From the NCBI GenBank assembly GCA_014323925.1, contig JACONC010000002.1:58571-122570 (forward strand): a DNA stretch of 64,000 nt, in the 5' to 3' direction. Both the position numbers and the translations under genes were made by a program. Under the pieces are notes generated by a model that was given only the letters and a program-made list of their open reading frames with translations, was not told where the DNA came from and ran no database searches. The number at the start of each line of letters is the position of its first letter. Position 1 is the stretch's first letter. Positions 12,760 to 39,247 of the stretch are shown in pieces. Origin of the DNA: Chromatiales bacterium (lineage in GTDB: Bacteria > Pseudomonadota > Gammaproteobacteria > Poriferisulfidales > Oxydemutatoraceae).

Positions 12760-12893
12760 CACTGTCGAGTTTTATCAAGCCTGCCTACAGAACTTTACTG
12801 GTTGTGTAGTAGCGGAAACCTAAGGGATTTAATAAGTAGCTAAATATCCTGCTAAAAATCGCCCTTTTTTTCAAGAGATATGCACACTCACCG

Positions 12894-13316: not shown

Positions 13317-13362
13317 GGTTGCAAGACAATGAAAAAGCTAAGCAAGGAGAGCTATAGGCGCA

Positions 13363-15450: not shown

Positions 15451-15476
15451 ATTCTCTTTCTCTTCCGCCTAAATGA

Positions 15477-15746
15477 TTATCGGCGCAATCCCAGAGACGA
15501 TATTAAAGTTTGGTAGCGGTTTTTATCTTTGAATTTTAAGTAATCAAGAAGCTGGCGGCGTGAATTAACCATTCTAAGTAATCCCCTCCGCGAATGTGTA
15601 TCTTTCTTATGCTCTATGAAATGACTTTGGAGTCCATTGATACGCTTGGTCAATAGTGCAACTTGTACTTCGGTTGAACCAGTATCATTTTCGGAACGCG
15701 CATATTGCTTAACTACTTCAATTTTTTCTTCTTTACTTAAAGGCAT
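15477..15746 (-). CDS. rpsO: 30S ribosomal protein S15
   Basis: 89 aa, [15 protein letters not shown]...[11 protein letters not shown]...HSRRGLL; rpsO-pnp synteny. Confidence 0.95.
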
Positions 15747-16010
15747 TTTTTGTCTCTATTAATATCTGTGCATTATATCATAAAAAATAAGATAGCTTGT
15801 AAGTTAAATATTTAAGTGTAAGGGCAAAGCAGAAATGTGGGGCTTTTGAAAAAGTAGGCTTTATCCTCTGAAGCTATACTGGGATGAAAAATGTTGATGT
15901 GAACGAAAACCTTATCCAGTGAAAATAAAAATCTAAAGTGGCCGATAACCTCTTTTCCACTAAAACGCTGATACTAAAATCTAAAATGGATCACAGGCTA
16001 TATATAAACT

Positions 16011-16754
16011 TTAACTGCGATCCAGTATTATAGGAATTTCGTTCCAAATTTTTCCGTCAAGATCCCTACCATTGACCTTTTTGTTACGGCTCTGCCCATC
16101 TTCACCCCAACGTCCCCATTGTTTGAAAAAAAACGGAATCTTCTTTGTCTGGCATTGTTTTTGAATTGACATTACCCAGGCTTTATCCATCAATCTGGCT
16201 TTATGCCCGGATTCACCACCCACAATGACCCAATGAATACCATCCAAATCTATTACACCTAAATCTTCTAATAAGGGTTCTATAGATAAAAATCTTATTT
16301 TTGCTGAAATTTCACGCAGTATTGGTATTCTTGGAAGGCCATGTTTCTTATTTTCTACTGAAACACCAAGCCATATATTGTCAGGAATCATACGCTTATT
16401 AAAATATTTTGCCATGATTTTAGGGCGCTTGGTTAAAAGCTGATAGTTATGTTGTGGCGACTGGTGGATTGTCTCCATAACACGGTCAATAAAATGAAAC
16501 GGAACATAAGGATGGAATAAATCACTCATTGAGTTTATAAAATATATGGTCGGTGTTTTACGCAGCAACGGCTGCTTTAAGCGCTCTTCATGGCAAGACA
16601 CGGTAAAGCCGTTTTCATAACCAGAAACCCTCATAGCCTGCAATCGTCGTGCCATTACTTCGGCATAACAATACTTGCATCCTGCTGATATTTTTGTGCA
16701 ACCTGTAACAGGATTCCAAGTGCGTTCTGTCCATTCAATGCCTGAATTACTCAT
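16011..16754 (-). CDS. DUF5131 / phage Gp37-Gp68 family 'three-Cys-motif' protein
   Basis: Family-hallmark N-terminus IEWTERTWNPVTGCTKISAGCKYCYAE (Cx6Cx2C), downstream NSMSDLFH and GGESG motifs; last gene of R-M operon. Confidence 0.8.
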   Translation of the reverse strand: MSNSGIEWTERTWNPVTGCTKISAGCKYCYAEVMARRLQAMRVSGYENGFTVSCHEERLKQPLLRKTPTIYFINSMSDLFHPYVPFHFIDRVMETIHQSPQHNYQLLTKRPKIMAKYFNKRMIPDNIWLGVSVENKKHGLPRIPILREISAKIRFLSIEPLLEDLGVIDLDGIHWVIVGGESGHKARLMDKAWVMSIQKQCQTKKIPFFFKQWGRWGEDGQSRNKKVNGRDLDGKIWNEIPIILDRS

Positions 16755-16778
16755 GCTTCAAAACCATAATTTTATCCG

Positions 16779-17858
16779 TTAAAGAAATAAAGTTGGGTTT
16801 CTATTTTTTTTGAGAGAAATCGTAATTTTATCTTTGTATTTATTTCTGTCCTTGTATTCTGTTAGGTAGAAAGCACCTGGTGTTCTTTTCTGCTTCGGAA
16901 TAATTTCTAGTTTCCCTTCTATTTCCATTTCCTGTAGCACAGGGCGAACATCAGGAGGTAAAAAACCTTTCTTAACAATTTCTTCTGACAGTTCTGTATT
17001 ACTTATTGGTCCCTGTTTTTTAAGAAGCTCAGACAGATACTGATTTATTTGAGCATTATTAAAATCAGAAAAAGTTAGTTGCTGTTCTAGCTTATTTTTT
17101 ATATCATTTTTTGCTTTCAAAAATTTTTCTGCACCAGTTCTATGCTTAGTAATAAAAAATAAATGGTAGTGCGTATTTGCTACATTTCTGTTTTCTAATT
17201 CATAACTGTATCCATATTCAGTTTGCGCCATTTCTTTTAGAATTTTTATTAGTTTATCTGCAAAAGTGTGCTTTTTGCTTTTGCTTAATTCGCTCTCACT
17301 CATGCCTAAATTCAAAAGAAACCGGCGGGCAGGTTTATCTTTGTCATCTTTGTTATCTTTATCATCTTTGAATCTATAGATATGGTAGGTTGGCATAAAG
17401 ATCAAATAATCAATATTCCTTAAACTGAATAATCTAACTAAGTTGTCTTTTGAATATTGAGTATAGCCGTATGGATCTATAAAAACCAAGCTATGTAGAT
17501 TACGCTTTCCAGCCAAAAAATGGCTCATTCCATCTAGAAATTTTTTAGCATCCGCATTGAAAGTTTTCACAAAGTCTAAGTATTTATCCATTGATTTTTC
17601 TAGTCGCCGATGCTTTTCATCGTCTAGTTCGTTTAGAAATAAACGAATGTCTTTTTTATTATATTTTTCTCTAAATTCCTTTATAGTTTCTACCGCCACC
17701 ATTGCACTTCCTTTCTCTCCACCATCGTATACTCCTTCGCCTGCGAATGGTTCCCATACAGCAATCCTATCCCACTGATCTGAATTGCACATAACGAAAA
17801 GATAATGAGTTAGATACGCTTCGTATACGGCTATCTTCTCTTTTGTGTGTGGTTTCAT
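16779..17858 (-). CDS. TcmP-like partner protein (three-Cys-motif partner family), function unknown
   Basis: 359 aa; N-terminal HTKEKIAVYEAYLTHYL resembles recalled TcmP start; 24 bp upstream of DUF5131 gene on same strand; internal (DKD)n repeat; no HMM confirmation possible here. Confidence 0.45.
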   Translation of the reverse strand: MKPHTKEKIAVYEAYLTHYLFVMCNSDQWDRIAVWEPFAGEGVYDGGEKGSAMVAVETIKEFREKYNKKDIRLFLNELDDEKHRRLEKSMDKYLDFVKTFNADAKKFLDGMSHFLAGKRNLHSLVFIDPYGYTQYSKDNLVRLFSLRNIDYLIFMPTYHIYRFKDDKDNKDDKDKPARRFLLNLGMSESELSKSKKHTFADKLIKILKEMAQTEYGYSYELENRNVANTHYHLFFITKHRTGAEKFLKAKNDIKNKLEQQLTFSDFNNAQINQYLSELLKKQGPISNTELSEEIVKKGFLPPDVRPVLQEMEIEGKLEIIPKQKRTPGAFYLTEYKDRNKYKDKITISLKKNRNPTLFL

Positions 17859-17923
17859 TGAAGCATTATATGTTAAATGAGGTAAGTTTAGATTCTATAT
17901 ACTTTTTATAAAGTTGTTAGCTA

Positions 17924-20900
17924 TTAGTCAAAGATTGTAGAGATGTTGTTTGTCCAGTAACGGCTATATGCTTTGGAGGCGGTTGGCTCAGGGTTGAACA
18001 GCAAAAGTTTGATAGATACTTTTTGATTTTTTTTGTAGGTAAATAATTTAGGTTGTCCTGATTGCTCGAATAACTCTTTGTAACCGTCTATTTTGTGATA
18101 TGCGTTGGTGTGGGTTGTTCCTTTGGGGTCAACGAATACGATTTGATATTGGTTATCTTTACACATCCAAAAAATAAAATCAGGTAAAAATCGGCTATAG
18201 CTATGCACTTTGCTGTTGAAGTAGGGTATGTATATATTGTCCAGTGATTCATCTATTTTACTAAACATCCAGGCGTCCCATCGTCCGTTATCGTTTTGTG
18301 CAGTCCATTCTTCTAGTTTTTCAAGAAAATCAATCTCGCTCCGTTCTTTAACGATGTGCTGGATAAAGTTAGCCTGTTTGTGTCCGAGTATGATCGGCAG
18401 GTAATAGTGCTTGGCAATTTTTTTGATGGTCAGACCTTCGTGCTCCAGAGATTCTTCTCCGTCAATTATGTCTGCAAGCTGTTCGCGATTAATTAAGTCT
18501 TTTTCAAGTTTCTTAAATAATGCGGGCAGTTCCTCATCGGAGGTTTTACCGGCTTTAACCTGACGGATCTTCTTTGAAAGGTCGTTTAGGTATTTCTCTT
18601 GCACACGGATTTGGCGAAAATGGACAATGTCTTGCTGTCCTTCTGTTTCCTTGATGGGCCTCACCCCGCGGGTTTCTTCAATTTCGGTGTCAATGTGATG
18701 TAGCAGCCGACTTTGCAAAAAGGATAGTTGGTTGTAGTGTTTTTCTGGCTTAATCTCTATATGACTTTGTTGAGTAATCATTTTTTCTAAGCCATCAATC
18801 TGCGGTTTTGTCCATCTATCGCGAACGATGAACACTGATTCTGAAGTGGCTGCAAACCAGCGCTTGAATCTGTTCAGGGTTTGCTCGTTCATTGTAAATT
18901 TCGGTAGCTGTTGGCTACTACGCACCGCCCGATATTCGGGGACTAGCAAAGGCATTTTTACACGAGTGCTCTTGATTCTGGGTCTTTGTTCGAGTTCAAA
19001 CCCAGGCAACAATTCAAACGATGAATCTCTTTCCGTTTTCAATCCTTCTAAGACGGTCTTGATGGCTTCGCGATTAGTCGCGAATATAAACAATGTCTCA
19101 ATCGGCAATACTTTATCTAGGTGTTTTTCTAAGATAGCTTTTGTATTGTCGTCTAATTTAATCTCGCCCTGACTCGGCTGATAATTGCGTCTTTTCAAGT
19201 TAGCTTTTTTATTGCTGTCTTTCGTGAGCACTTGTTGTAGACGGCCGCGCTTGCTCGGAAGCGGTTGTATCCGCACTCCGCGGCCGATTGATTGGACGAC
19301 GAATTTTTTGGCATCGCTACCGACGCCGATATTGATATAGTTGATGATATTGGGGCGATTGGAATCCCAGCTTTCAAAAAATGAACGAGAGCCCATCAGG
19401 ATAGTAATCGGTCTTTTTTCTAGTTCGTCAAAGAACGATTTTTCTTGCAATGTGGTGGTTTCTTCATAGTTTGCAAGCAGATTGTTGCGCCACTTGGCAG
19501 TACTACCAATGCGTATCAATGCAAATGGCGAGGCAGCATTTTTCATCTGAAATGCTAGCTCTTTGTCATCTTTACTACGCACATATTGCAAGGCTCCCTT
19601 TCTTGTACTCAGAAAAACCATTTTTCGCAGCTTAGCAACCGTCATTTCTTCAATGGTTTTTTCGTCGCCGTCCAGGATATTTTGTTTGTTTGTGCTGAAA
19701 AGTAATTCTGCATTTTCCCAGTTGCTGACTAATTCCTCTTTTGCGGTCTTAAAAAGTTCATCAGTAATCTCTCCGCTGGCTATGCTACGCAAAGTTTCAA
19801 AAAAAGCTCGCAGATCATTTCGGTGGATATCGGTATTAACCGAATTGACCAAAGTCAGCATCAACGGTAAGTGATACAAATCGTTTCTCAAACCTGTGCT
19901 ATCTCGTAGCGCCTCAACCCGCATGGAAATATAAGCAAGGGCGATGAGTGATTTCAAAACTATTTTTTTTCGCTCAGTATCATTCACTTCTTCTCTTCTA
20001 TACCTAAATGCATCATACTCGCTTTCGTTCAGGTAGATGTTTTTACTTCGTCCTTCTTTTATAAACTCTGCCAAGTTATATTTTTTCACGGTGGTTGCAA
20101 TATCTTTTGGGTCAGTGAAAGTGGCAGAAAAGTTAAACAGAAATCCGTTGCGTGACATAACGGTATAATATGCTTGCCGTTTAGAATCTTCCTTAGTGCC
20201 TTTGTGCGCTTCGTCCAGTAAGATGAACCATTTGCCGTCTCTCTCGTAAGTTTGGTAGTCGGTCCGATTTTCTTTTTGTACATCGGAGATGTTGTCGCTG
20301 CGATGATAATATACCGGTATGGTATCTCCTAGAAGACCTTGATGTGCCCTCTGCATTGAGCGCAATGCGATTAAATCAATAGCTGCATCACGCGCATAGT
20401 TGAATTCATCAACCGTTTGCCGTATTTGCTTTAACAAATGCTCGCTTGGTGCCAGTATGAGAATGGGGTAGTTGGGAATTTCGTTGCGTTGCTGCAAAAA
20501 GTGCAAATACTCTATCAGTTTAATCATCACTAATGTTTTACCGCTGCCCGTTGCCATCCAAAAACACATTCGGTTGATCAGCTGGTGGTATTGGATAGAG
20601 GCTCCGTCGGGGGTAATGTATTCCGATAAGATACGGAACACTTCATTTTGTTTGTTTTTTTCTCTATTGGAGCGGGTGTCGTACTTTACTATGTCCGAAA
20701 ATTGAGCATTTGTATACAAAGCTCTGAAATTCCGCTTACGCCGCTCATCAGTTTGCTCTGGTTCGCTGGGTTGCCAATCGTATTTCTCTTGGTAATATCT
20801 AAACAGCGCGCAGGCAGCGTTCTTTAGAGCCGAGCGTTGATAGTCATATAATCGCTTGCGTTCGGAGAATGTGTAAATATCGTCTATACGCCAAGTTTCT

Positions 20901-20968
20901 GGTAGCTCGTCGTAGTGGACAGAACGGGCTATTTCTTCAAGGGTAGAAGTCATGCATTTCCCCACCAT
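17924..20968 (-). CDS. res: Type III restriction enzyme Res subunit (SF2 helicase-nuclease)
   Basis: Walker A MATGSGKTL, DEAH-box ILLDEAHKGT, C-terminal PD..D-x-K-like motif (LPDFIF...VFVDPKG); 19-nt overlap with upstream mod. Confidence 0.8.
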   Translation of the reverse strand: MVGKCMTSTLEEIARSVHYDELPETWRIDDIYTFSERKRLYDYQRSALKNAACALFRYYQEKYDWQPSEPEQTDERRKRNFRALYTNAQFSDIVKYDTRSNREKNKQNEVFRILSEYITPDGASIQYHQLINRMCFWMATGSGKTLVMIKLIEYLHFLQQRNEIPNYPILILAPSEHLLKQIRQTVDEFNYARDAAIDLIALRSMQRAHQGLLGDTIPVYYHRSDNISDVQKENRTDYQTYERDGKWFILLDEAHKGTKEDSKRQAYYTVMSRNGFLFNFSATFTDPKDIATTVKKYNLAEFIKEGRSKNIYLNESEYDAFRYRREEVNDTERKKIVLKSLIALAYISMRVEALRDSTGLRNDLYHLPLMLTLVNSVNTDIHRNDLRAFFETLRSIASGEITDELFKTAKEELVSNWENAELLFSTNKQNILDGDEKTIEEMTVAKLRKMVFLSTRKGALQYVRSKDDKELAFQMKNAASPFALIRIGSTAKWRNNLLANYEETTTLQEKSFFDELEKRPITILMGSRSFFESWDSNRPNIINYINIGVGSDAKKFVVQSIGRGVRIQPLPSKRGRLQQVLTKDSNKKANLKRRNYQPSQGEIKLDDNTKAILEKHLDKVLPIETLFIFATNREAIKTVLEGLKTERDSSFELLPGFELEQRPRIKSTRVKMPLLVPEYRAVRSSQQLPKFTMNEQTLNRFKRWFAATSESVFIVRDRWTKPQIDGLEKMITQQSHIEIKPEKHYNQLSFLQSRLLHHIDTEIEETRGVRPIKETEGQQDIVHFRQIRVQEKYLNDLSKKIRQVKAGKTSDEELPALFKKLEKDLINREQLADIIDGEESLEHEGLTIKKIAKHYYLPIILGHKQANFIQHIVKERSEIDFLEKLEEWTAQNDNGRWDAWMFSKIDESLDNIYIPYFNSKVHSYSRFLPDFIFWMCKDNQYQIVFVDPKGTTHTNAYHKIDGYKELFEQSGQPKLFTYKKNQKVSIKLLLFNPEPTASKAYSRYWTNNISTIFD

Positions 20969-23610
20969 AAATAAGGTTTCAGCAACGATATAAAATGAAT
21001 CTGCTCTTCTTTATCCATTTTGGTTGGGTTTATTTTCTCTACACTCCCATCGGCGAAGGTCACACTGTCTGCCGTTCGGCGCCGGATATGTTTACCTAGT
21101 ATGTTGGCTAGAGATTCGGCTATATCTATATCGGAACAAAGCGATTTCAGGTTGATTTTTAGCTTGCCACTTGTTAATGGTTTGACGATATGTGAGAGCT
21201 TGTCGTCGGCGAAAAAAACATATTGCTCAAACGGCGACTTTGCACTGTCTAGTTCCAATTGCTCGCCGTCTTCGTAGCGTGCATTTCTCAATGTTTCCTC
21301 GTATTGCTCTAAACTATAGTATTTCAGACAATGACTGCTACCTTCGCAAGACACCGGCTTTCCTTTGTTCCAATCTTTAGAATAGACAACCTTTTTGATA
21401 CGCGGCAATAGCACGGTGTGAAAATATTCACCCATTTCTACGAGCAGATATTTTCTGTTACCACCATCTTCTTGGTTTAGATTAATGATTGCATGGGCAG
21501 TTGTGCCAGAACCGGCGAAGTAGTCAAGAATAATTGAATGGGAATTTGCCCCTATGACCAAAGAATCCTTAACAGTATTTAGACTTTTGGGGTAGGAAAA
21601 TTTATCAAAATCATCACTAAACATTTTTTTTAATAATATCGTTCCGTGAGACGAAGCATCGTACTTAGAATCTACCCATATAGATTTGGGCATTATTTCT
21701 TGTTTGATTCTATCTTTAACATAAATTACGCAATTGTCTTTTCTCTCTTTTACTATAATTTCGGTTTTTAATTTACTTTGTAGTGTCTCTTTTCCCCATC
21801 TCCAAATTCTTTCTTTACCTGAATCATCTATGGGTAGAATTTCAATGTCGCTTTTCTGTTCTCTTTTTGTGGAAAGCTTTTTACTTTTAGGATTCCAAAA
21901 GAGCGGATAGTAAAGATTAGGCCTAGCTTGTCGTGTAGAATTAGAACCAGTACGCCTAAAAGGAACTTCTTTATATTTTCCCAAAGAATCTCTTTTGTTG
22001 TATGTCTGTTCAAGGACATCTTTATTTGCAGTAAACTTGCTTGTTTCAAGTTTTTGTATGTCTTTTGCATATAAAAGGCAGTAATCATGCGCCGCCGCCA
22101 AATGTTTGGCATCACTGCGCCCCCCCGGATTAGACATAATAGAAATATTACCCACATGATTATTACTTTCGAAAATGGACTTAAATAATATGCCAAGATA
22201 CTCCATTTCTTCATCATCTATAGCGACTTCCATTATCCCATTTGAAGATAGGTAGGATTTAGATAAATGCACCCTGTTTTCTATTAAGCATAAAAAAGAA
22301 GAGTGTTTATATGAGTTTTTATAAACAATTTCGGATGATGAAGTATTATATGGCGGATCAATATAAATACATTTCACTTGCTCTTTGTATCGTCTTTGTA
22401 GTGTGTTCAGTGCTTGCCAATTCTCACTATGCACCAATTCTCCGTCCAGTGCTTCGTCTAAGTTTCCCAAGCAGGCAAGAATTTCCAGTTCCAAATCTTT
22501 GAAGTGTCGGGTGTCTAGAGGTAGAAATTTATATTGACTGCCCACTTTGTTGGTATCGTCTATTCTGCGTTGTCCATTAAAAAGGTCTTTTATTAAAAAC
22601 TGATTATCTACTATTCCCAGTTCGTGCCATTCTTTGATCTGTGCTTTCACACCTTTGTGTTTGACTATTTCCTGCAGGACTTTATCGCTTAGCTTATCTA
22701 AAGTTACGACATAGTTCACATTGCGCACAAACTTGGGCTTTTCCCATATCCGACGAAGCTCGTCCTCAAACTGGGCAATAAAATCGATAATTTCATAGGC
22801 AGTATCTTTAATGGCTTGTAGTTGTTGGATCCGCTCAGCATCAAAATGGGTTGTTCCCTCAAAGATGTATTGATAAAGCCATAAATTAAATTGCTCTTGT
22901 AAAAAGCGCCTGGCATCTTTGTTGATAAAAAAATCTACCTCAGTTTGCTTGCGAAACACACTGATTGCTTTTTGAAGTTCGTCTTCGGTTAAACGAGTCT
23001 TTTGCTTGCGAGATTCTCTGATGATTTCTTCTGTCTGACTTTTTTTGTTGCCTTCTTTATAGCCGACTTTAAGACATATAACCTGCTTGTCTCCTTCCTT
23101 TTTCACCTTGTCAAATGCATAGATGAATTCGCGCCGTTCGTTATTTCTCTTGTGCGTGCATTCGCTTACATCAAAATAAAAATGTTGTGTGCTATACGAT
23201 TTATCCGCATCGCGTAATTCAACCGGCATAGAATGTACCAATACATCGGATTTAACATAGTAAAGCATTTGTGTTTTCCAAGATAATGCGACATCTTGCC
23301 CGTCTTGATAGACGCGCTCATAGATTTTAGAGAATGCCGGAAGATGGCGGAAGTAAATAGACCCACTGTCACAAAAATAGCGATGAAAAAAAGTATAGAG
23401 CTTGTCAAACAATTCTTCGCGAAAAGCGGTATTGGGTGTTGCTCGCCGCTTAATATTTTCCATCAGCTCAGGGCGTATAGAACGAAAGTAATTACGCTTG
23501 ATACACATCAGATTGACGAATCCGGAATCTCCTTCTACTTCGGCGCCAGTAAACAAAGATTCCAGTGCATCAAGGAATCGCTTTTCTTTGCGTGAGTCCG
23601 AATAAATCAT
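20950..23610 (-). CDS. mod: Type III R-M Mod subunit (beta-class N6-adenine DNA methyltransferase)
   Basis: Motif IV DPPYNT precedes motif I DYFAGSGTT (beta-class order typical of Type III Mod); 886 aa. Confidence 0.8.
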   Translation of the reverse strand: MIYSDSRKEKRFLDALESLFTGAEVEGDSGFVNLMCIKRNYFRSIRPELMENIKRRATPNTAFREELFDKLYTFFHRYFCDSGSIYFRHLPAFSKIYERVYQDGQDVALSWKTQMLYYVKSDVLVHSMPVELRDADKSYSTQHFYFDVSECTHKRNNERREFIYAFDKVKKEGDKQVICLKVGYKEGNKKSQTEEIIRESRKQKTRLTEDELQKAISVFRKQTEVDFFINKDARRFLQEQFNLWLYQYIFEGTTHFDAERIQQLQAIKDTAYEIIDFIAQFEDELRRIWEKPKFVRNVNYVVTLDKLSDKVLQEIVKHKGVKAQIKEWHELGIVDNQFLIKDLFNGQRRIDDTNKVGSQYKFLPLDTRHFKDLELEILACLGNLDEALDGELVHSENWQALNTLQRRYKEQVKCIYIDPPYNTSSSEIVYKNSYKHSSFLCLIENRVHLSKSYLSSNGIMEVAIDDEEMEYLGILFKSIFESNNHVGNISIMSNPGGRSDAKHLAAAHDYCLLYAKDIQKLETSKFTANKDVLEQTYNKRDSLGKYKEVPFRRTGSNSTRQARPNLYYPLFWNPKSKKLSTKREQKSDIEILPIDDSGKERIWRWGKETLQSKLKTEIIVKERKDNCVIYVKDRIKQEIMPKSIWVDSKYDASSHGTILLKKMFSDDFDKFSYPKSLNTVKDSLVIGANSHSIILDYFAGSGTTAHAIINLNQEDGGNRKYLLVEMGEYFHTVLLPRIKKVVYSKDWNKGKPVSCEGSSHCLKYYSLEQYEETLRNARYEDGEQLELDSAKSPFEQYVFFADDKLSHIVKPLTSGKLKINLKSLCSDIDIAESLANILGKHIRRRTADSVTFADGSVEKINPTKMDKEEQIHFISLLKPYLWWGNA

Positions 23611-31093: not shown

Positions 31094-32098
31094 ATGAACC
31101 ACTCTGGTAGTCAATCGTCAATGAGTTGGCAACGGCAATTGGGCAACGCCGTAACCGATATCACGACACTGCTCAAAGCACTGCAAATCAGTCCCGCACA
31201 AGCACACCTTGCAGGCATTGATAGTGAACCGCTATTCCCACTAAAAATACCATGGAGTTATTTATCTCGTATACAAAAAGGCTGCATTGACGACCCTTTG
31301 CTACGACAGGTGCTGGCATTGAAAAGTGAACATCTATCAACCGCCGATGAGACAGACGATCCAGTGGGAGATTTACCAGCGCGCCAATTAAGCGGGTTGA
31401 TTCATAAATATTATGGGCGCGTCCTGCTAACCGTCTCTGGTGCCTGTGCCATTCACTGCCGTTATTGCTTTCGTAAAAACTTTCCTTATAACAAAAATAC
31501 TCTAACAAATAACCTAGTGCCAATATACGAATATATAAAGCAACGACCGGAAATATCAGAAGTGATTCTCAGCGGTGGCGATCCCTTAACTTATAGCAAT
31601 AATAAATTGTTTGCACTCTGTGAGCAATTAGAGAGCATCGCGCATATTAGCAGGATACGCATACACACACGCCTGCCTATAGTGGTGCCGGCGCGAGTTG
31701 ACAAGCAGCTAAACGAATGGTTAAAACAACGACCCAAACACTATGTTATCGTCTTCCACATTAATCACCCTAAGGAAATAAACGATGAGGTTGAAGTAGC
31801 AACGGCGAAGCTACGCCATTTGTGTCTGCTCAATCAGTCCGTGCTGTTGCGCAGCGTCAACGACCAAGCTGCAATCTTAAAAGAACTAAGCATCCGCTGT
31901 TTTCAGGTAGGCATTTTGCCTTATTATTTGCATTTGCTAGATCCCGTCAGTGGCAGTTCTCACTTTAATGTGCCGCGTAGAGAAGCCATTAACATAATGA
32001 AAAAACTACACGCTGAATTGCCCGGCTATTTAGTACCAAGACTAGTCAAAGAATATCCGCGCGAAGCATCTAAAACACCCATCGCAATTAGATTTTAG
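31094..32098 (+). CDS. epmB: EF-P beta-lysylation protein EpmB (lysine 2,3-aminomutase-like radical SAM)
   Basis: Radical-SAM CAIHCRYCFRK motif, ~334 aa KamA-like. Confidence 0.8.
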   Translation: MNHSGSQSSMSWQRQLGNAVTDITTLLKALQISPAQAHLAGIDSEPLFPLKIPWSYLSRIQKGCIDDPLLRQVLALKSEHLSTADETDDPVGDLPARQLSGLIHKYYGRVLLTVSGACAIHCRYCFRKNFPYNKNTLTNNLVPIYEYIKQRPEISEVILSGGDPLTYSNNKLFALCEQLESIAHISRIRIHTRLPIVVPARVDKQLNEWLKQRPKHYVIVFHINHPKEINDEVEVATAKLRHLCLLNQSVLLRSVNDQAAILKELSIRCFQVGILPYYLHLLDPVSGSSHFNVPRREAINIMKKLHAELPGYLVPRLVKEYPREASKTPIAIRF

Positions 32099-32157
32099 CT
32101 GGGAGACCGCTGAGATGTGGTGTCTTTGAGTAAGGCTTTAATGCGTGGAATATTGGC

Positions 32158-32178
32158 AATGCCTCATTATCAGGCATT
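32158..32178. terminator. Putative bidirectional hairpin between convergent epmB and R-M gene
   Basis: AATGCCT-cattatc-AGGCATT followed by T/A-rich run. Confidence 0.35.
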
Positions 32179-32269
32179 ATTGAAATGTTTATATCATCTA
32201 GTATTGTTGCGCTTAGCTTCCTTGCGGTAATGCTTCTGCTTTGCTCGCTGTCAAAACTAAAGCTTTTCC

Positions 32270-35200
32270 TCATCCAAATTCGTTGTAACCCAGTCCTCTC
32301 ACATAAGGTTCCTTATGAAGTAAATCGCGTAGTTCGGCAAGCCCATCCTTGTCCCATTCCAATGCGTCAGCCACCGCCTCGTCCCATAGGCGACGCACTT
32401 CGCACTCGCCGTCTCGATATTGTGGCACCTCGATGTCGGCAGTTTGTTGCCAGCAATCGGCAAGGATAGTGCATATGCGTTTATCGCTGAGAGCGGGACA
32501 TCTGATATCCTTCCAAACAGCAGGGTTGTATATCGGAAATGTTAGCATTTGAGACCGCTTACCCAGTAACTGCAACCGCCCAAGAGTTGAATTAAGGAAT
32601 ACGGCGACAGCCTTTGCTTGTATCAATGACAAACCGCGCACTGGTTGCCAACCTAAACCGACATATTTTTTATCGCTCACCACTGCGGTCAACCGAGCAG
32701 TACTGATGTTTTGACCAGCTGTGACTAGCAAGTTTTCTGCCTTCTCTAGAAGTCTTGCAGTTTCGGCATGGTCTTGTTTTTTATGTATCCAATATTGATC
32801 AGGTTTCGCTGTAATGCACTTCTGAGCATCCTCGCCCTTCGATTTAAGGATAGGAAATCCACTGTTGATTTCAGTCTCCGTGAAGTGAACTGATAGTGTT
32901 GGCGCTGTTGAGGACGAGCTTGCGCCTTGATCCATCAAGCGCATTAATGCTTCTTTGGTAGCTATCTCCGCAGTAGCTTTGGCAAGAATCGGTGAGCGAA
33001 AAGCCGCAGCTATCCAGTTGCCTGCTTCCATGTATTCGGCAGGCCATTCGGAAACTTCCCCCCAACCATATGGGATGAGACCTTCTACAAGACCGTCAAG
33101 ACAGCTGTGCAGATCGGCAGCTGATGATTCATCAAGTGGCAATTTATCAAGGTTGATAATTCGTGTAGGTGGCACTGAGTCCTCACCTGAATGTCGTTTG
33201 GCAATAATGATGCTTTCGTTGATTTTAGTATTCTGGCTCAGATTAGGTTGGCTTGGCTGGTGGCTGGTAAGCAATGTGTGGATATGAAAGCGTTTCGCTA
33301 ATAAAATGCGTTCCTGCGCTGCCGCCACACCTGTTAGGACTATGGTAGGTCTGATCATTGCCAATGTCCCATCCTTCGAATCAAGGCATCGTTCTGCCAA
33401 CGCAACAAACATGGGACCGATAGATCTTCTGGATACAAAATCCTCCATCTCAGGATCAGACGACACCAAACCATCCTCAAACGAATCTACCCGTTCCCGC
33501 ATTCTTTCGCGAGTTTCCATCGGATATTTCTCACCCATTTTGGTGCGTTCAGTAAATGGCGGGTTCATCATAATAACACGAGCACCCAAAGCGGCTTTGG
33601 TTCCATCCACAAGGGCTGGATTGGTTCCATCCACAAGAGCCGGAGCAGTCTCCCTCATTTCCAACTGCTCTGATACAGCATCCGATTGATGTAAGTCCAG
33701 CTCGTCAGGTCTGGGAACAATCTTACGCTGCCCAAGTAATTCAAGCGAACCTACTTTTACTTGATCATCCTCAGGACCATAAGGCATTCTATACAAGCCC
33801 ATGTTTCTATAAGGCACATTGACATTACCCGCTGTCAGCTGGGCTGCAGCCAGTTGTAGCGAAACAATATTAATGTCCAGCCCGCAAAGTGTTTCCTCTA
33901 CAGCCAATTTTTGTAGTTCTGCCAGTTGCTGTGTGCTGGCACCTCTTTCCTGTGCTCGACGCTTCATTTCTGTTAATGATGCGGCGAGCAATGTCCCTGA
34001 ACCGCACGCCAAATCGGTGATTTTATTTGCCTGCCAAGTATTGGGAGTTGTCCAGTCTGCCTTGCTTGCCACTACATCTAAAGTAAGCCGTGCAAGTAGT
34101 GAGGCAGATTCTGGCCGGGTAAAAAAAGCGCCGTCCGATGTCTGGTTGCCCATAATTTTATTGAACAATTCACCGGCATAATCGGCACCCATCTCGGCAT
34201 AGTCCTCAGCCAAGCGTTGTGCTTCACCGGCGATGTGCCGCACTGCTTTGTTTAGCCCTGATTTTCTTCCGGTATCCTGTATTTTTTCAATGATTTCGAT
34301 GGCAGGTTCAATCACAGGGAGAAAATCGTGGCGAGTAATCTTGTTCCACTGACGATGGACTTGGTCGGCAGCGTCTGGATGACTCTTGATGTTATCAAGT
34401 CCGTCAACGCCATCCAACCACCTGCCGGCAGCAATCCGATGATGTAGCATGGCGGCATTCATCAAAAGTAAAGCCGCAATGGTGCAACCATCGGCACGAT
34501 CTTTGCCGATCTGCTGATCCAAACCAAAATAGTTATTCAGTTCTCCGTCAAGTTCTTCTTCTTTCAAGCAGTGTTTCGCTTCCCTGATAGCTTCCTCGAT
34601 AGTATTGACGCTTCGCTTTGCCTTATTTCGACAAAGCCCGGACTTTTCTAACAGATTAACGAAAATTCCCATATCATCGGCTTTAGACTGCTGTAGCAGG
34701 TTCAAAGTTTGTTGTTCTTTGAGTGCGGCTCTTTCCTCTGCGGTTTTACGATGGCGCGGGATTTTGCGCCCAGTTTTGCCATTGAGCATATCTTTGGCTG
34801 TTTTTTTGGTCTTTTTTATATTGATCGGTCCTGGCGTACCGTCCGCTCTAGGCCGGTCTCTTTCAATCCCTTGTTCGCGTATTTCAATGCTTCCGTCTGA
34901 GTTTTTCTTTCCACTGACTATACGGTTGGGTTCAATGCATTGCTGCAGCGGGTGAACTGTATGCTCGTCTGCTTTGTCAGTGTCGTTTTCAGAATCGTGC
35001 AGGGTCTCGCTGAGTGGTTCGAACACATCTTTGCGCTGCTCCTTCCCGTTCAGCGTATTTTCAACATGCGTCTCCACAGTCCCAGGCTTGCCTGTATGCA
35101 TGTGGTAGGAGGCTCTGCCGTGTTCAATTCCGAGGGCTACCACAGTAGACTCATCTTCGACAGTCCTCGGCGGAAGATAGATTTTCATTAGATCGCTGAG

Positions 35201-37210
35201 TTCATCCTCAATGCGCGAGTCATGGGCGCGCAACGCTCTCAATATTTGACCCAATGCTTGCCATCCATCTTCAGGAGAGCTGTTCGCGAGCCAACTCTCT
35301 GCATCAGTGTTTCGAGGGATTAGAATAGGGCAGAGGACATAGCCTAGTTGTTTCTCTTCGGCGCGACGCATAACCCGTCCTACTGCCTGAATCACTTCCA
35401 CCGGAGATTTGCGTGGTTCAAGGAAACCCACTGCCGAGAGCGAGGGCGCATCTGTTCCTTCGCCGAAAATGCCGACATTGAGGATACCTTGTGGCACCGC
35501 CTCTGTCGCCTTGACAAGTTGCGCTATGGCTTGTTCGCGCTTCTCTACATTGCTTTTGGCATCAAGGTGCTGCAAGTGATATTTATTGACTCCTTCGCAC
35601 ACGCCATCCTCTGCTAGTCGGTGCCCCACCCATTGACGCACAGTAGCAGATTGGAGTGCCTCAGTCATTTTTTTTGACCTATCAACCGTATTCATAAAGT
35701 TGATAGACGAACGGATGTTATGTCCGTTTTTGCGGGTGCCTCCGCCCATAACCAAAGCAAGAACCAGTCCGCGCAAGAACTGCGAAGTGGACAGACCTTT
35801 GGTATCTGTCGCCAGTTGGTTAGCAGTCTTATAGGCTTCTTCATCATTAACGCCGAGGGCAATGATACGATAATCTGAAAGCCAACCGTTATTTACCGCG
35901 TCACGATAGTCTTTTCTATAAATCTCTGGTCCGAAAATATCCTCGTCGTCCATGCTACGAGTAATCCATTCCCTGTTGTTTACCCTCCACTCAGCGTTGC
36001 GTTGCCTTTCAGTTTTATAAACCTTTGGGGTTGCCGTTTGATAAATCCGGTATTTTGCACGGAAACGAAGCTGGTTGTGACAAACAGTGAAATCGCGTAG
36101 TTGCCCTTCTTTCCCTTTAACACGCCGAATCCCTGCTGTTCGGTGTGCTTCATCGGCTACCATTACAGTAATCGTTTTACTACTTGATTGCAGCGCATCG
36201 GCAATTTTATGGCTGGACTGATAAGTGCCGAAGATAACACCAATGCTATCCTGTGGCACTGCATCCATCCACCGCACTATTTCGGCGGGGTCTGTGGTAA
36301 CGCTACCTTTGATGCCACGGGTGCTTGCTTGACTCAAATCCGCCGTTTGGTCTTTTGACAAATCGCTGCTTTGTGCTGCGGTTTGGTCAGAACACACTGC
36401 CAACGCCATCAGCTGTTTGGAGCTGTTGACGAGAAATTCGCGGCGTAATTGAGCAACCAGCGCAATGGATGGGCAGAGGATTGCCGAGATTTCTCCTGCT
36501 TCGGTTAGTGTTTCTATTATCCGCAGCGCGATACGCGACTTGCCAGTTCCGCATGGGAGAATGATCTTGCCCCTGGCATCCCCTTTTCCGCTATTTGCCT
36601 GCGCCTTAAGCTTTCCCACCGCTATCTCGACAGCCTCCTGCTGCATAGCATCCCGCGTCTGTTTGCTGTCTACCTCTTCACGGGGCACTTGATCTTCGTC
36701 AATGTTGCTACTGGTAGCGTCAAGGTGTTTCCTGATATCTGAATGTAAATTGACCTGCTTGACATTGTTCTCACAGAGCACCTTATCGGCGTTTGAGCTA
36801 GTACCAACGGCGCCATTAACGACTAACCAGAGCTCTTCCCAATCTTCAGTGCGGATCGTTGATTCGGCAATAAAGCTGTTAATTTCGCGCCTGTTTATCG
36901 GATTACCTTCGCCATTATCACCTAGCTGCCTGGACTTGCATTGAATGGCTATGTGCTTGCCGTCGTGCCGCTTGGCAACCACATCAATACCGCAATCTCG
37001 GTATTCCTTACCTGGCCAATCATCCCACTTCCAGGCTTCGCAGACATCCCATTCGGCGATAAGGGGGGCACAATCAGCAGTCAATTGCTCCAACCATTTC
37101 CCATCTGTCTGCTGGCTTGACATTTCTTCAATTGTAACCAACGCCTCTCTTAGTCTATTCAAGTCGTTGGTATCGTTATTGTCGGGTACGCGCTCTGTGT
37201 TTGGCATCAT
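32270..37210 (-). CDS. Single-polypeptide Type ISP-like restriction-modification enzyme (Mrr-like nuclease + SF2 helicase + gamma-class N6-adenine MTase + TRD)
   Basis: N-terminal PD-(D/E)xK Mrr-like (GIDVVAK...IAIQCK); helicase motifs I PCGTGKSR, II VADEAHR, VI QAVGRVMRR; MTase motif I DLACGSGTLL then motif IV NPPF; 1646 aa. Confidence 0.7.
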   Translation of the reverse strand: MMPNTERVPDNNDTNDLNRLREALVTIEEMSSQQTDGKWLEQLTADCAPLIAEWDVCEAWKWDDWPGKEYRDCGIDVVAKRHDGKHIAIQCKSRQLGDNGEGNPINRREINSFIAESTIRTEDWEELWLVVNGAVGTSSNADKVLCENNVKQVNLHSDIRKHLDATSSNIDEDQVPREEVDSKQTRDAMQQEAVEIAVGKLKAQANSGKGDARGKIILPCGTGKSRIALRIIETLTEAGEISAILCPSIALVAQLRREFLVNSSKQLMALAVCSDQTAAQSSDLSKDQTADLSQASTRGIKGSVTTDPAEIVRWMDAVPQDSIGVIFGTYQSSHKIADALQSSSKTITVMVADEAHRTAGIRRVKGKEGQLRDFTVCHNQLRFRAKYRIYQTATPKVYKTERQRNAEWRVNNREWITRSMDDEDIFGPEIYRKDYRDAVNNGWLSDYRIIALGVNDEEAYKTANQLATDTKGLSTSQFLRGLVLALVMGGGTRKNGHNIRSSINFMNTVDRSKKMTEALQSATVRQWVGHRLAEDGVCEGVNKYHLQHLDAKSNVEKREQAIAQLVKATEAVPQGILNVGIFGEGTDAPSLSAVGFLEPRKSPVEVIQAVGRVMRRAEEKQLGYVLCPILIPRNTDAESWLANSSPEDGWQALGQILRALRAHDSRIEDELSDLMKIYLPPRTVEDESTVVALGIEHGRASYHMHTGKPGTVETHVENTLNGKEQRKDVFEPLSETLHDSENDTDKADEHTVHPLQQCIEPNRIVSGKKNSDGSIEIREQGIERDRPRADGTPGPINIKKTKKTAKDMLNGKTGRKIPRHRKTAEERAALKEQQTLNLLQQSKADDMGIFVNLLEKSGLCRNKAKRSVNTIEEAIREAKHCLKEEELDGELNNYFGLDQQIGKDRADGCTIAALLLMNAAMLHHRIAAGRWLDGVDGLDNIKSHPDAADQVHRQWNKITRHDFLPVIEPAIEIIEKIQDTGRKSGLNKAVRHIAGEAQRLAEDYAEMGADYAGELFNKIMGNQTSDGAFFTRPESASLLARLTLDVVASKADWTTPNTWQANKITDLACGSGTLLAASLTEMKRRAQERGASTQQLAELQKLAVEETLCGLDINIVSLQLAAAQLTAGNVNVPYRNMGLYRMPYGPEDDQVKVGSLELLGQRKIVPRPDELDLHQSDAVSEQLEMRETAPALVDGTNPALVDGTKAALGARVIMMNPPFTERTKMGEKYPMETRERMRERVDSFEDGLVSSDPEMEDFVSRRSIGPMFVALAERCLDSKDGTLAMIRPTIVLTGVAAAQERILLAKRFHIHTLLTSHQPSQPNLSQNTKINESIIIAKRHSGEDSVPPTRIINLDKLPLDESSAADLHSCLDGLVEGLIPYGWGEVSEWPAEYMEAGNWIAAAFRSPILAKATAEIATKEALMRLMDQGASSSSTAPTLSVHFTETEINSGFPILKSKGEDAQKCITAKPDQYWIHKKQDHAETARLLEKAENLLVTAGQNISTARLTAVVSDKKYVGLGWQPVRGLSLIQAKAVAVFLNSTLGRLQLLGKRSQMLTFPIYNPAVWKDIRCPALSDKRICTILADCWQQTADIEVPQYRDGECEVRRLWDEAVADALEWDKDGLAELRDLLHKEPYVRGLGYNEFG
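33597..33644 (-). repeat. In-frame 24-bp tandem duplication inside R-M gene (encodes PALVDGTN/PALVDGTK)
   Basis: TTGGTTCCATCCACAAGGGCTGGA / TTGGTTCCATCCACAAGAGCCGGA adjacent copies, 2 mismatches, ~10 codons upstream of NPPF motif. Confidence 0.85.
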
Positions 37211-37747
37211 CAGTTAAAATATCGGAAGTTGATAGCAAGGACGATTCAGTGCATTCTATACGCTTCCAAGCAAATTGAGTAACGACGACCGCTTGGCGGT
37301 ATGACACAATTATCGCTGCAAATATTATTTACTTGGAAACTGTCAACTATTTTGTTAACTTTGTAGGTATAGCTTGTATTGTTATCGTTTCTGTATAGCG
37401 AAATATGGGGGTGTTTTTACTTAGTTAGATTATTTAATAATCGAATTTGTAAACATACCATGGCCCCGTTGCATCTGGGCCGCCAGGTGCTTCTCCGCAA
37501 CGAAATTTTCTTTTAGCTTGATCCTCTTTCTCTCTTCTTTCGGGGTTTGTTGTGATACCTACTTGACATGCCATAATTTATATCTCCTAAATTTAGTTTA
37601 TCGTGTTTTTTTTATTACAATCATATCATAAAAACTTTATCATCAATGCGATTGCCGCACAATCGCTTCGTCGGGTGGAACGCCTAGCTTCCGTCAATGC
37701 ATTGTATAAAGCTATCTCTGACATTTTTGTTTATTCCTTGTACTTTT

Positions 37748-39247
37748 TTATAGTATTTTGCTGCTCCAAAAATACACCACCAAAGTCATTATAACGATAG
37801 CGCAAATATTAATAATCAGACCTGCTTTCACCATGTCTTTAATTTTTAGATAACCAGATCCTAAAACGATGGCGTTGGGTGCGGTGGCAATCGGCATCAT
37901 AAAGGCGCAGCTAGCACTCATTGTGGCTGCGGTAATTGCTGCTATCGGATCAATACCTGCGTTCATCGCCAGAGCAGAGATGATTGGCACCAGTGTTGCG
38001 GTCGTGGCAGTGTTGGAAGTAACTTCAGTTAGCAAAACAACCAAAGCAACGATAGCTAATATAATAAAAATAATAGGCAACTCCGATAACACGGTAAGTT
38101 GCCCACCGATAATAGTGTCTACCCCATAAGTCTTGATAGCTTGTGCTAATGCCAACCCGCCACCGAATAAGAAAATAATATGCCAGGGTAACTTTTTCGC
38201 AGTATCCCAGTCCAATGTTGGTTGTCGTTTACTCGCCGGTATCACGAATAGCAAGACCACCGCCAACAGTGCAATGCCAGAGTCCGACAGACCAGTAAAA
38301 GGCCTGACTATGCCGCTATCAGTCGTAAAACTCAGTGCTTCTAGACGAGTTCTACTCAGCCATAAAACTATCGTTAGCGCAAACACTGCTATAGTAATTT
38401 TACCGCCGCGTTCTAGTGGTGGTAGTTGAGTATATTGTCTGCGCAGTAGTTCTTTGCCACCCAATATCGTCTGATTAGAAATCGGGAAAATAAACTTTGT
38501 CAATAACAGCCAAGTGAGTGGAAGTAGCACCAATACTGCAGGCAACACTGCGCTGCTCCAAGCCAAAAAACTTATCTCGTACGCTAATATATCTTCGGCA
38601 AAGCCGACCGTAAAAGCATTCGGAGGAGTGCCTACTATCGTCGCAATACCACCTATATTACATGCATAAGCAATCCCCAACATCAGCACTATGGCAAAGT
38701 TTCTCTGCATATTCTCGCCACCAGCCTGTGATTGCTTATTCAGAAGTGTAATGATAGTTAATCCAATAGGCAACATCATCGCCGCCGTTGCTGTATTAGA
38801 AATAAAGGCACTCAACCCAGCGCACAACAGCATAAATCCTAAAATCAGCTTTCTAGGTTGGCTACCTATATTAGATAAAATCAATAGCGCAATGCGTTTG
38901 TCAACACCCCACTTCTGCAGTGATAAGCCTATTATAAAGCCGCCTAATAGTAGGAATATCACTGGTGAACTATAAGCCTGAGCAACCGTTTTAATGCTGC
39001 TGGGCGTTAATAGTGGGAATAGCAGTAACGGAAGCAACCCGACGACGGCGATAGAAATCGCTTCAAAAAGCCACCATACAACCATCCATATCAATATCGC
39101 AATAATTATCTTAGCGGAGTCGCTAAAAACCAACTGCTCATTATGTACATCACTATAAATATCAGGTAGCAACAAGTAGACTACTACAGCTAACAGCGGC
39201 CCTAGCACCAAAGCTTTGAGCTTACGCGGGTTAACTAAATCGCTCAC
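37748..39247 (-). CDS. DASS/SLC13-family anion:Na+ symporter
   Basis: ~13 predicted TM segments and two hairpin-tip SNT motifs (FISNTATAAM; VTSNTATTATL) diagnostic of DASS fold. Confidence 0.75.
   Translation of the reverse strand: MSDLVNPRKLKALVLGPLLAVVVYLLLPDIYSDVHNEQLVFSDSAKIIIAILIWMVVWWLFEAISIAVVGLLPLLLFPLLTPSSIKTVAQAYSSPVIFLLLGGFIIGLSLQKWGVDKRIALLILSNIGSQPRKLILGFMLLCAGLSAFISNTATAAMMLPIGLTIITLLNKQSQAGGENMQRNFAIVLMLGIAYACNIGGIATIVGTPPNAFTVGFAEDILAYEISFLAWSSAVLPAVLVLLPLTWLLLTKFIFPISNQTILGGKELLRRQYTQLPPLERGGKITIAVFALTIVLWLSRTRLEALSFTTDSGIVRPFTGLSDSGIALLAVVLLFVIPASKRQPTLDWDTAKKLPWHIIFLFGGGLALAQAIKTYGVDTIIGGQLTVLSELPIIFIILAIVALVVLLTEVTSNTATTATLVPIISALAMNAGIDPIAAITAATMSASCAFMMPIATAPNAIVLGSGYLKIKDMVKAGLIINICAIVIMTLVVYFWSSKIL

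Follow-up and report, generated by a model that had tools for sequence, protein, structure and literature searches.

A single uninterrupted open reading frame (ORF) with an ATG start occupies positions 32270..37210 on the minus strand of the window, the 64,000-nucleotide stretch of DNA analysed here, and encodes a 1646-aa polypeptide carrying nuclease, motor, methyltransferase (MTase) and target recognition domain (TRD) functions on one chain. The identical 1646-aa gene was called by two independent public assemblies (ENA and JGI), in both of which the ORF is intact. Downstream lies epmB (31094..32098, plus strand), which is convergent with the enzyme gene, and upstream a DASS transporter gene (37748..39247, minus strand); the first-pass annotation had described the enzyme gene as convergent with both flanks, which holds for epmB but not for the DASS gene, located on the same strand. 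The window neighbours comprise epmB, the isc operon, the DASS transporter gene and a peptidase M48 gene. The upstream gap (37211..37747, minus strand; 537 bp, GC content 0.371) is AT-rich and presumably contains the promoter. It agrees in length with the ~540-bp non-coding region noted earlier, though it holds a 46-aa ORF (37434..37574) that is preceded by AGGAG and was called by two pipelines; this small ORF showed no Pfam match and no relatives among the homologous loci. A promoter/terminator consensus scan revealed no minus-strand site upstream of the enzyme gene and nothing convincing.

The history of the locus was apparent from two related genomes (L087 and L088), whose EpmB proteins are 76% and 73% identical to that of the window and whose contigs measure 2.3–3.0 Mb. 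In these, the DASS gene and the peptidase M48 gene (both on the minus strand) come 21 and 44 bp, respectively, after epmB (plus strand), and no enzyme gene lies between. Since epmB lies directly beside the DASS gene in both, the 5649-bp segment 32099..37747, which separates the 3' end of epmB from that of the DASS gene, is an insertion, and the enzyme gene arrived with it as a 5.6-kb gain at the epmB/DASS junction. These empty sites support the separate acquisition proposed initially more strongly than base composition alone. The 48 window ORFs average a GC content of 0.442 (SD 0.032); at 0.489, the enzyme ORF does have the highest value, but the excess that had been called visible is small, at +1.5 SD. 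No words of at least 10 nt, direct or inverted, were common to both boundary zones when target-site duplications and terminal repeats were sought, no integrase or transposase was found near the insertion, and the inserted segment gave no Rfam match. Elsewhere in the same genome there is a Type III island, separate from the enzyme insertion.

Pfam searches located, from the N- to the C-terminus of the single ORF, Mrr_cat_2, ResIII, Helicase_C and N6_Mtase domains, which are followed by a TRD recognized in the predicted structure. Motif residues were read straight from the protein sequence and their coordinates verified. The Mrr-family PD-(D/E)xK nuclease spans residues ~37–160 (36731..37102, minus strand), as supported by the Mrr_cat_2 match (residues 56–156, E 8.7e-12) and by alignment to the nuclease domain of LlaBIII. 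Its catalytic residues E41, D72, D76, Q90 and K92 (D72 to K92 at 36935..36997) are invariant or at least 90% conserved in 44 homologues, and they align with residues E38, D74, D78, Q92 and K94 of LlaGI, whose importance was shown by mutagenesis (PMC2790908). The nuclease is followed by an SF2 helicase-like ATPase with two RecA cores (residues ~188–680; 35171..36649, minus strand), assigned by Pfam (ResIII, residues 188–396, E 1.2e-16; Helicase_C, residues 542–616, E 2.2e-5) and by homology to LlaBIII and LlaGI. Four helicase motifs on the minus strand, GTGKS (residues 221–225; 36536..36550), DEAH (353–356; 36143..36154), TATP (392–395; 36026..36037) and QAVGRVMR, of the form QxxGRxxR (608–615; 35366..35389), do not vary across the 44 homologues.

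Several comparisons tied this N-terminal half to the Type ISP enzymes. The protein matched LlaBIII (PDB 4xqk; E 7e-59, residues 68–673) and LlaGI (PDB 5ffj; E 2.8e-52), and the family profile matched the solved Type ISP enzymes at E 9.6e-89 over positions 11–670. A protein annotated by PGAP as 'type ISP restriction/modification enzyme' is 29% identical over residues 17–674, and the PADLOC matches REase_MTase_IIG (5.7e-93) and REase_MTase_I (3.7e-60) are both confined to residues ~56–672. Neither the whole protein nor the family profile matched LlaBIII or LlaGI in the PDB past residue ~673, and the idea that the enzyme is simply a divergent LlaGI orthologue was dropped because the PDB matches stop there. 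Likewise, each of 642 matching plasmid records covers at most the N-terminal ~47% of the enzyme.

The C-terminal half begins with a linker (residues 681–850; 34661..35170, minus strand), which is the least conserved stretch of the enzyme and sits where Type ISP enzymes have their coupler. Predicted within it are a small beta-rich element and, after this, a poorly ordered segment rich in Lys and Arg (AF2 model m857661b7181d, with strands at model residues 7–27 and 83–101 and pLDDT <50 at 58–77 and 140–179). An all-helical domain precedes the MTase fold (residues 851–1050; 34061..34660, minus strand) and is, in our interpretation, similar to the helical domain at the N-terminus of Type I HsdM. 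The catalytic domain of a gamma-class N6-adenine DNA MTase (residues 1051–1350; 33161..34060, minus strand), which is one of the defining elements of Type ISP enzymes, is present, with motif I DLACGSGTL at residues 1066–1074 (33989..34015, minus strand) and motif IV NPPF at residues 1216–1219 (33554..33565, minus strand). The N6_Mtase match (~residues 1023–1125) scored 19.2 bits with the whole protein, against a Pfam cut-off of 20.4, and 21.6 bits with the C-terminal half alone; a Pfam scan of 22 C-terminal modules matched this domain in all of them. All 44 homologues share D-x-A-C-G-S-G-T-L and N-P-P without variation, and the conservation of F1219 among them is at least 90%.

The TRD, assigned from predicted structure, comprises residues 1351–1646 (32273..33160, minus strand). 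A model of residues 681–1646 reached a pLDDT of 82, its best structural matches being TRD-bearing adenine DNA MTases, and a TRD-only model (pLDDT 88.9) matched the TRDs of BpuSI, BseCI, CamA, PglX, MmeI, HsdS and M.TaqI. A putative C-terminal TRD of ~450 aa had been proposed; the domain is indeed predicted there, but with a length of ~300 aa. When 668 pairs with at least 80% helicase identity were compared, mismatches peaked at residues 1221–1300 and 1361–1520, which we read as a signature of target specificity and which is the same pattern as that described for 552 Type ISP sequences (PMC4872093).

A canonical Type ISP enzyme served as a control for the coupler and specificity models, matching PF22240 (ISP_coupler) at 4.5e-49 and PF18135 (Type_ISP_C) at 7.8e-100. 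In our enzyme, Pfam searches gave no PF22240 match at E<=1 and no match to the PF18135 specificity domain. Profile comparison with the canonical enzyme (hhalign) aligned the MTase core only (86% probability, 17% identity), and the coupler region gave no alignment; the helical region at residues 851–1050 is at most a candidate counterpart of the coupler. Judged from these sequence comparisons, the methylase and reader half is of a lineage other than that of the studied Type ISP enzymes. NCBIfam returned no family-level match for our enzyme nor for the canonical one, and it is thus unusable as a membership test.

Taken together, the ORF, the Pfam domains, the motifs and the predicted folds agree with the single-chain, Type ISP-like nuclease-helicase-MTase-TRD enzyme that the first-pass annotation had proposed. 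Far from being degenerate or absent, the nuclease and helicase modules have invariant or nearly invariant catalytic residues, as does the MTase, in 44 homologues of 51–64% identity, these residues correspond to ones found essential in LlaGI (PMC2790908), and a complete LlaGI-type motor is present instead of a PglX-like or Type IIG architecture. The sequence thus characterized points to a real, probably active Type ISP-like restriction-modification (R-M) enzyme and, very probably, a self-contained phage-defence protein of the Type ISP kind. The label 'Type ISP-like' is right, but placing the protein within the Type ISP family as present models define it goes beyond the evidence, because the sequence match to the LlaGI/LlaBIII family is confined to the N-terminal ~670 residues, the coupler and TRD being of another type.

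The enzyme belongs to a large family, with more than 100 full-length homologues (49–64% identity, 99% coverage) that carry, where they are named at source at all, the name 'DEAD/DEAH box helicase family protein'. Its closest members were found in metagenome-assembled genomes (MAGs) that represent no fewer than 10 phylum-level groups and include many lineages that we take to be sponge-associated, and the family moves between distant bacterial phyla. Such an enzyme had been considered unusual in a gammaproteobacterial chemolithotroph, a view contradicted, as far as Gammaproteobacteria are concerned, by the ~17 gammaproteobacterial MAGs among the 80 best genomic loci. Homologous loci showed mobile-element contexts (SSB, NikA-like, TraT, transposase), and one paralogue (L046) is interrupted. 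A literature search on Type ISP enzymes together with sponges retrieved nothing relevant.

Based on sequence motifs and structural models, we consider it highly likely that the protein acts as a stand-alone, ATP-dependent, single-polypeptide R-M enzyme in the manner of Type ISP. The C-terminal clamp formed by the MTase and TRD would read a short DNA sequence, and since a single TRD lies in one chain, an asymmetric rather than a bipartite target is expected. On host DNA, the enzyme would methylate one adenine at N6 on one strand, leaving the site presumably hemimethylated. On unmodified foreign DNA, target binding would instead switch on the N-terminal SF2 motor, which would translocate along double-stranded DNA in a direction that we infer, and the Mrr-type nuclease would cut non-specifically, most probably upon collision of two converging enzymes. 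Given such collision-driven cutting, restriction would need at least two head-to-head sites. How target recognition would be coupled to the motor is likewise inferred, given a linker that is unlike the coupler of LlaGI.

A different possibility is that the protein is not autonomous and forms part of a multi-gene methylation-based defence (BREX-, DISARM- or MANTIS/Gao_RL-like), which we regard as very unlikely. It could draw on weak PADLOC matches to PglX (E 0.037) and DrmMI, yet both have E>0.03. It could also draw on a DUF7689 gene, translationally coupled downstream and overlapping the enzyme stop codon, in 24–25 of ~80 homologous loci in the ~49%-identity clade; this overlap indicates that some relatives may require a partner. 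When neighbour ORFs were clustered across 84 loci, the only recurrent ones were DUF7689 (25 loci of a different clade) and, within the closest clade, a 55-aa ORF, neither of which occurs in the window, and no conserved partner gene was found in this enzyme's clade or in the window. Neighbours differ among the homologous loci L001, L003 and L004, and in relatives the empty site is bordered by the same genes that neighbour the enzyme in the window, so that the insertion brought only the enzyme gene and the 46-aa ORF. The MTase of BREX or MANTIS lies beside BrxA, B, C, L and PglZ or MtsA, B and D, and the neighbours here are housekeeping genes. The MANTIS/Gao_RL model was also rejected on its composition of four genes, which in MANTIS encode a PLD nuclease-helicase plus three further proteins (10.64898/2026.09.23.753747).

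Two further readings question the activities themselves. In one, which we hold to be very unlikely, the protein is a methylation-dependent (Type IV-like) or modification-sensing motor nuclease whose MTase-TRD portion serves as a non-methylating binding or sensor module. Modification dependence is the classical behaviour of Mrr-family nucleases, the helicase weakly resembles those of the Type IV enzymes PADLOC mREase_IV (8.8e-5) and SauUSI (7clg, 1.2e-4), and the whole-protein N6_Mtase score lies slightly under the Pfam cut-off. However, this domain was matched in every C-terminal module scanned, and the invariance of the SAM-binding motif and N-P-P at 51–64% identity argues for selection on catalysis; moreover, LlaGI too has an Mrr nuclease and yet restricts unmodified DNA (PMC2790908, PMC2790903). 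In the other, most improbable reading, the gene is a remnant, either decaying or domesticated, and encodes a helicase that serves DNA repair or replication and not defence. The generic source names of homologues, weak NCBIfam similarity to XPB, RadD and Hef, and the interrupted paralogue would fit this, but the ORF is full-length with the motifs of all four activities intact, and patchy occurrence among phyla, mobile-element contexts and empty sites form the pattern of an accessory defence gene, not of core repair.

Beyond the stand-alone R-M enzyme itself, a broader reading can be offered tentatively, one that we judge slightly more doubtful than credible. Under it, the family would represent a second class of motor-driven R-M enzymes on a single chain, put together independently, in which a LlaGI-type Mrr nuclease and SF2 translocase was joined to a BpuSI/PglX-type MTase-TRD through a different connector in place of the Type ISP coupler. 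As a defence gene, it would also have passed between no fewer than 10 phylum-level lineages, many of them characteristic of marine sponge microbiomes, and it is paired with DUF7689 in one clade. The connector would consist of the modelled beta-rich element, the basic disordered segment and the HsdM-N-terminal-like helical domain. If this were true, the switch from target recognition to translocation would have evolved two times. The simplest model of how sequence recognition leads to long-range translocation and cleavage is provided by Type ISP enzymes, and to our knowledge all mechanistic and structural work on them comes from two near-identical lactococcal proteins. The same nuclease and motor with another connector and a BpuSI/PglX-like reader would allow the general parts of the coupling to be tested. 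Pfam, NCBIfam and PADLOC recognize generic domains or the N-terminal nuclease/motor only and contain no family-specific model; with such generic recognition and naming, surveys of defence systems, such as those in sponge symbionts, may overlook members or assign them to other classes. For this genome, the locus represents a clean, recent 5.6-kb defence-gene gain at a housekeeping site.

The enzyme can be compared with several known systems. In classical Type I systems, HsdR, HsdM and HsdS are separate subunits, whereas here all functions reside on one chain with a LlaGI-type motor, NCBIfam HsdR models matching only weakly (E>0.01). PglX/BrxX of BREX (PDB 8c45, 9ewz) lacks nuclease and helicase and is part of a six-gene system, and no other BREX genes lie near the enzyme gene. 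Type IIG/IIL enzymes such as BpuSI and MmeI are motor-free nuclease-MTase-TRD fusions, a plan interrupted here by the SF2 ATPase between nuclease and MTase. BpuSI (Type IIG, PDB 3s1s), M.BseCI and CamA all lack an SF2 motor, unlike the enzyme; BpuSI, whose N-terminal nuclease is a different one, needs no ATP to cut and does so at a fixed distance, and BseCI and CamA are methyltransferases only. The closest parallel is with the Type ISP enzymes LlaGI and LlaBIII, which are likewise single polypeptides of ~1600 aa and whose parts follow one another as they do here, from the Mrr nuclease through the SF2 motor, the linker and the gamma-class N6-adenine MTase to the C-terminal TRD. Homology to their sequences covers the nuclease and the motor (29–30% identity), and the unusual combination of Mrr motifs, E, D-x3-D and Q-x-K, is common to both. 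The PF22240 and PF18135 matches of a canonical Type ISP enzyme are missing from ours, and where the coupler of LlaGI is all-helical, the linker here is predicted to be beta-rich, basic and poorly ordered. With no match to the coupler or specificity models and the MTase core alone aligned, recognition could be coupled to the motor differently from LlaGI.

The gene at 32270..37210 on the reverse strand of the window is a single unbroken ORF with an ATG start, encoding 1646 amino acids. Two public metagenome assemblies produced independently, one from ENA (158-kb contig) and one from JGI (130-kb contig), both contain this gene next to the genes that flank it in the window, so an assembly or frameshift artefact is unlikely. 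A Pfam scan of the protein identified Mrr_cat_2 (residues 56-156, 8.7e-12), ResIII (residues 188-396, 1.2e-16), Helicase_C (residues 542-616, 2.2e-5) and the start of an N6_Mtase domain (residues 1023-1125), the last scoring 19.2 bits with the whole protein (cut-off 20.4) versus 21.6 bits with the C-terminal half alone. The intact reading frame and the domain order proposed in the first-pass annotation are thereby confirmed, and every motif that it listed was found, with coordinates checked; the TRD, however, comprises about 300 aa instead of the ~450 aa originally assigned to it.

When the enzyme was compared with all PDB sequences using phmmer, it matched LlaBIII (4xqk, E 7.4e-59) and LlaGI (5ffj, 2.8e-52), and a profile of 44 homologues matched the same structures at 9.6e-89 and 8.3e-78, respectively. 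All these matches were confined to residues ~11-673, where the nuclease and both RecA cores lie. Enzyme residues E41, D72, D76, Q90 and K92 align with E38, D74, D78, Q92 and K94 of LlaGI, which mutagenesis identified as critical or important for cleavage (PMC2790908). Among the 44 homologues, the five enzyme residues show either no variation or at least 90% conservation. Helicase motifs I (GTGKS), II (DEAH), III (TATP) and VI (QAVGRVMR) are invariant in the same set. Both the nuclease and the helicase module anticipated by the annotation are present, with conserved catalytic motifs, and the N-terminal half is, judged by its sequence, genuinely related to the Type ISP enzymes of solved structure.

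Past residue ~673, no match to LlaBIII was obtained with either the single sequence or the family profiles. The canonical enzyme used for comparison, a 1640-aa protein of E. coli plasmid pDY612-5 named by PGAP as a type ISP restriction/modification enzyme, matches the Pfam models Type_ISP_C (PF18135, 7.8e-100) and ISP_coupler (PF22240, 4.5e-49). Neither model matched the window enzyme at E<=1 or the C-terminal modules of the wider family at E<=0.1 (0/22), which matched N6_Mtase (22/22), MmeI_Mtase (19/22) and Eco57I (16/22). BLASTP aligned the window enzyme with the canonical one at 29% identity over residues 17-674 and found nothing significant beyond, and when the family profile of the C-terminal half was compared with its canonical counterpart by hhalign, the MTase core alone aligned (86% probability, 17% identity). 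In a tblastn search of 72,556 plasmid records, 642 matched the enzyme, all below 60% identity and the best of them often annotated as Type ISP; none covered 80% of the enzyme, the best coverage being 47%.

The model of residues 681-1646 (mean pLDDT 82.2, pTM 0.73) retrieved BpuSI (6e-16), BrxX/PglX (9e-16) and LlaBIII (1.8e-10) in Foldseek, as well as CamA (target TM 0.67) and M.BseCI. Motif I (DLACGSGTL, residues 1066-1074) is followed by NPPF (residues 1216-1219) and then by the TRD, which is the gamma-class order. Since the residues for SAM binding and catalysis vary little or not at all among the 44 homologues, the methyltransferase is probably active. The C-terminal half combines an adenine methyltransferase with a TRD and is not of the LlaGI type. 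In the model, the connector between helicase and MTase consists of a small beta-rich element, a Lys/Arg-rich low-confidence segment and a helical domain (residues 851-1050), the latter interpreted, from HsdM matches, as resembling the HsdM N-terminal domain. The stretch between MTase motifs I and IV includes an inserted loop of low confidence, in which 8 residues are duplicated in tandem (APALVDGT followed by NPALVDGT; residues 1189-1204, window 33599..33646, reverse strand).

A word-indexed search returned 1529 relatives, more than 100 of them full length (1620-1800 aa, 49-64% identity, 99% coverage); where a source gives a name, which is rarely the case, it is 'DEAD/DEAH box helicase family protein'. 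With residues 851-1646 as query, 1859 cluster representatives passed E<=1e-3 in an exhaustive HMMER search, of which 353 also passed E<=1e-30. Three distant members that were scanned (~1470 aa, 30-33% identity) share the order Mrr, ResIII, Helicase_C, N6_Mtase/Eco57I, and ISP-specific domains were absent from all three. Conservation of the C-terminal domain is at first sight too high for a TRD. Among 668 pairs whose helicases are 80% or more identical, mismatches are most frequent at residues 1221-1300 and 1361-1520, and they peak elsewhere only at the extreme N-terminus and in the disordered linker. [quoted passage not shown] The pattern fits a specificity altered by substitutions while the scaffold stays fixed. 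Two genomes carry two family copies each: in OY763410.1 (loci L029 and L048) the helicases are 66% identical and residues 1401-1500 just 43%, and in OZ220737.1 (L046 and L079) the L046 copy is interrupted, its longest ORF spanning 1214 aa.

A genome scan of GTDB species representatives yielded 431 relatives. The best 80 of these (47-65% identity), nearly all from MAGs, fall into at least 10 phylum-level groups, including Dehalococcoidia and other Chloroflexota, Gamma- and Alphaproteobacteria, Poribacteria, Latescibacterota, Entotheonella, Gemmatimonadota, Acidimicrobiia (including Candidatus Poriferisodalis), Cyanobacteria and Rhodothermales, with names such as Porisulfidus, Caldilineaceae and Arenicellales. 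From the names, we take many of these lineages and MAG series to be typical of marine sponge microbiomes. The spread of the best 80 over phyla implies horizontal transfer of the enzyme family. Some homologues adjoin SSB, NikA-like, TraT or transposase genes. At one homologous locus (L003), a gene for a 1628-aa protein without Pfam match (12176-17062) follows the enzyme gene, accompanied by SSB, YAcAr and NikA-like genes, a context pointing to an element of conjugative or integrative type.

When the ORFs lying up to 3.5 kb from the gene at 84 loci were all clustered, one recurrent neighbour emerged, DUF7689 (PF24738, 142-179 aa). Its gene and the end of the enzyme homologue, stop codon included, overlap by 10-64 nt at 24-25 of ~80 loci (for example L004:12330-12782, L016, L029, L048, L050, L070 and L079), all in a ~49%-identity clade that spans several phyla, and DUF7689 may be a translationally coupled partner. 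Neither the window nor the closest clade has it, so the window enzyme is best regarded as autonomous.

The enzyme gene is flanked on the left by the isc operon (iscR, iscS ... hscB, hscA, fdx) and epmB (31094..32098, forward strand; named as sources name its homologues), and on the right by a DASS/Na-sulfate symporter gene (37748..39247, reverse strand) and a peptidase M48 gene. The convergent arrangement described earlier holds for epmB but not for the DASS gene, which lies upstream on the same strand. In two related genomes, in which EpmB is 76% and 73% identical and the contigs measure 3.0 and 2.3 Mb, 21 and 44 bp, respectively, separate epmB from the DASS and M48 genes, which keep their orientation, and the enzyme gene is absent in between. 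Given this direct adjacency in both relatives, window 32099..37747 (5649 bp) is more likely an insertion than a segment lost from both by deletion, in agreement with the separate acquisition originally suggested. The segment comprises the enzyme gene, 171 bp downstream and an AT-rich upstream region of 537 bp, close to the ~540 bp reported but containing a 46-aa ORF (MACQVGITTNPERREKEDQAKRKFRCGEAPGGPDATGPWYVYKFDY; 37434..37574, reverse strand) that is preceded by AGGAG and called by the ENA and JGI pipelines. Pfam gave no match for this ORF, and the 84 homologous loci contain no relatives of it. The GC excess noted by the annotation exists but is small: at 0.489 versus 0.437 for the rest of the window, the enzyme ORF ranks highest of 48 window ORFs, only 1.5 SD above their mean. 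Neither direct or inverted repeats of at least 10 nt at the insertion boundaries (32099..32269 and 37700..37790) nor a recombinase gene nearby was found. A second, compositionally different defence island (16011..23610, reverse strand, GC 0.33-0.42) lies 9 kb away and encodes, all on that strand, a Type III-like Mod (N6_N4_Mtase, 20950..23610), Res (ResIII/SWI2_SNF2, 17924..20968), a protein with a weak GMT-like wHTH match (16779..17858) and a DUF5131 protein (16011..16754).

The best-supported proposal is that the enzyme operates in a Type ISP-like manner. The MTase and TRD would recognise an asymmetric site, and N6-adenine methylation of one strand would protect host DNA; the SF2 motor would translocate, in an ATP-dependent manner, away from unmodified sites, and the Mrr nuclease would cleave non-specifically upon collision of two converging enzymes. 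Of this scheme, the analysis shows the architecture, the homology, the integrity of the motifs, the folds and the variation pattern. We infer hemimethylation, the directionality, the dependence on collision and the route of coupling; the last is where the scheme is most vulnerable, as no trace of the known coupler was detected. Conserved motifs, the context of the gene and a distribution like that of accessory genes each speak against three other explanations: that the protein belongs as a subunit to a system like BREX or MANTIS, which is very improbable, that it is a modification-dependent nuclease with an inactive MTase, which is slightly more improbable still, and that it is a non-defence helicase, which hardly deserves credence.

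Regarding known systems, the Type ISP-like architecture put forward in the annotation stands, with a nuclease and motor homologous to those of LlaBIII/LlaGI followed by an MTase and a TRD, and the overall biology of the enzyme is as would be expected. Its alternative connector and TRD could be used for testing the generality of the Type ISP coupling mechanism. Membership in the LlaGI/LlaBIII family was considered and dropped, since two of the modelled domains that define that family, ISP_coupler and Type_ISP_C, are not detected. The window enzyme shares its nuclease and motor by descent with Type ISP enzymes, and the description that suits it best is that of a LlaGI-type motor nuclease linked to an MTase and TRD of the BpuSI/PglX type.
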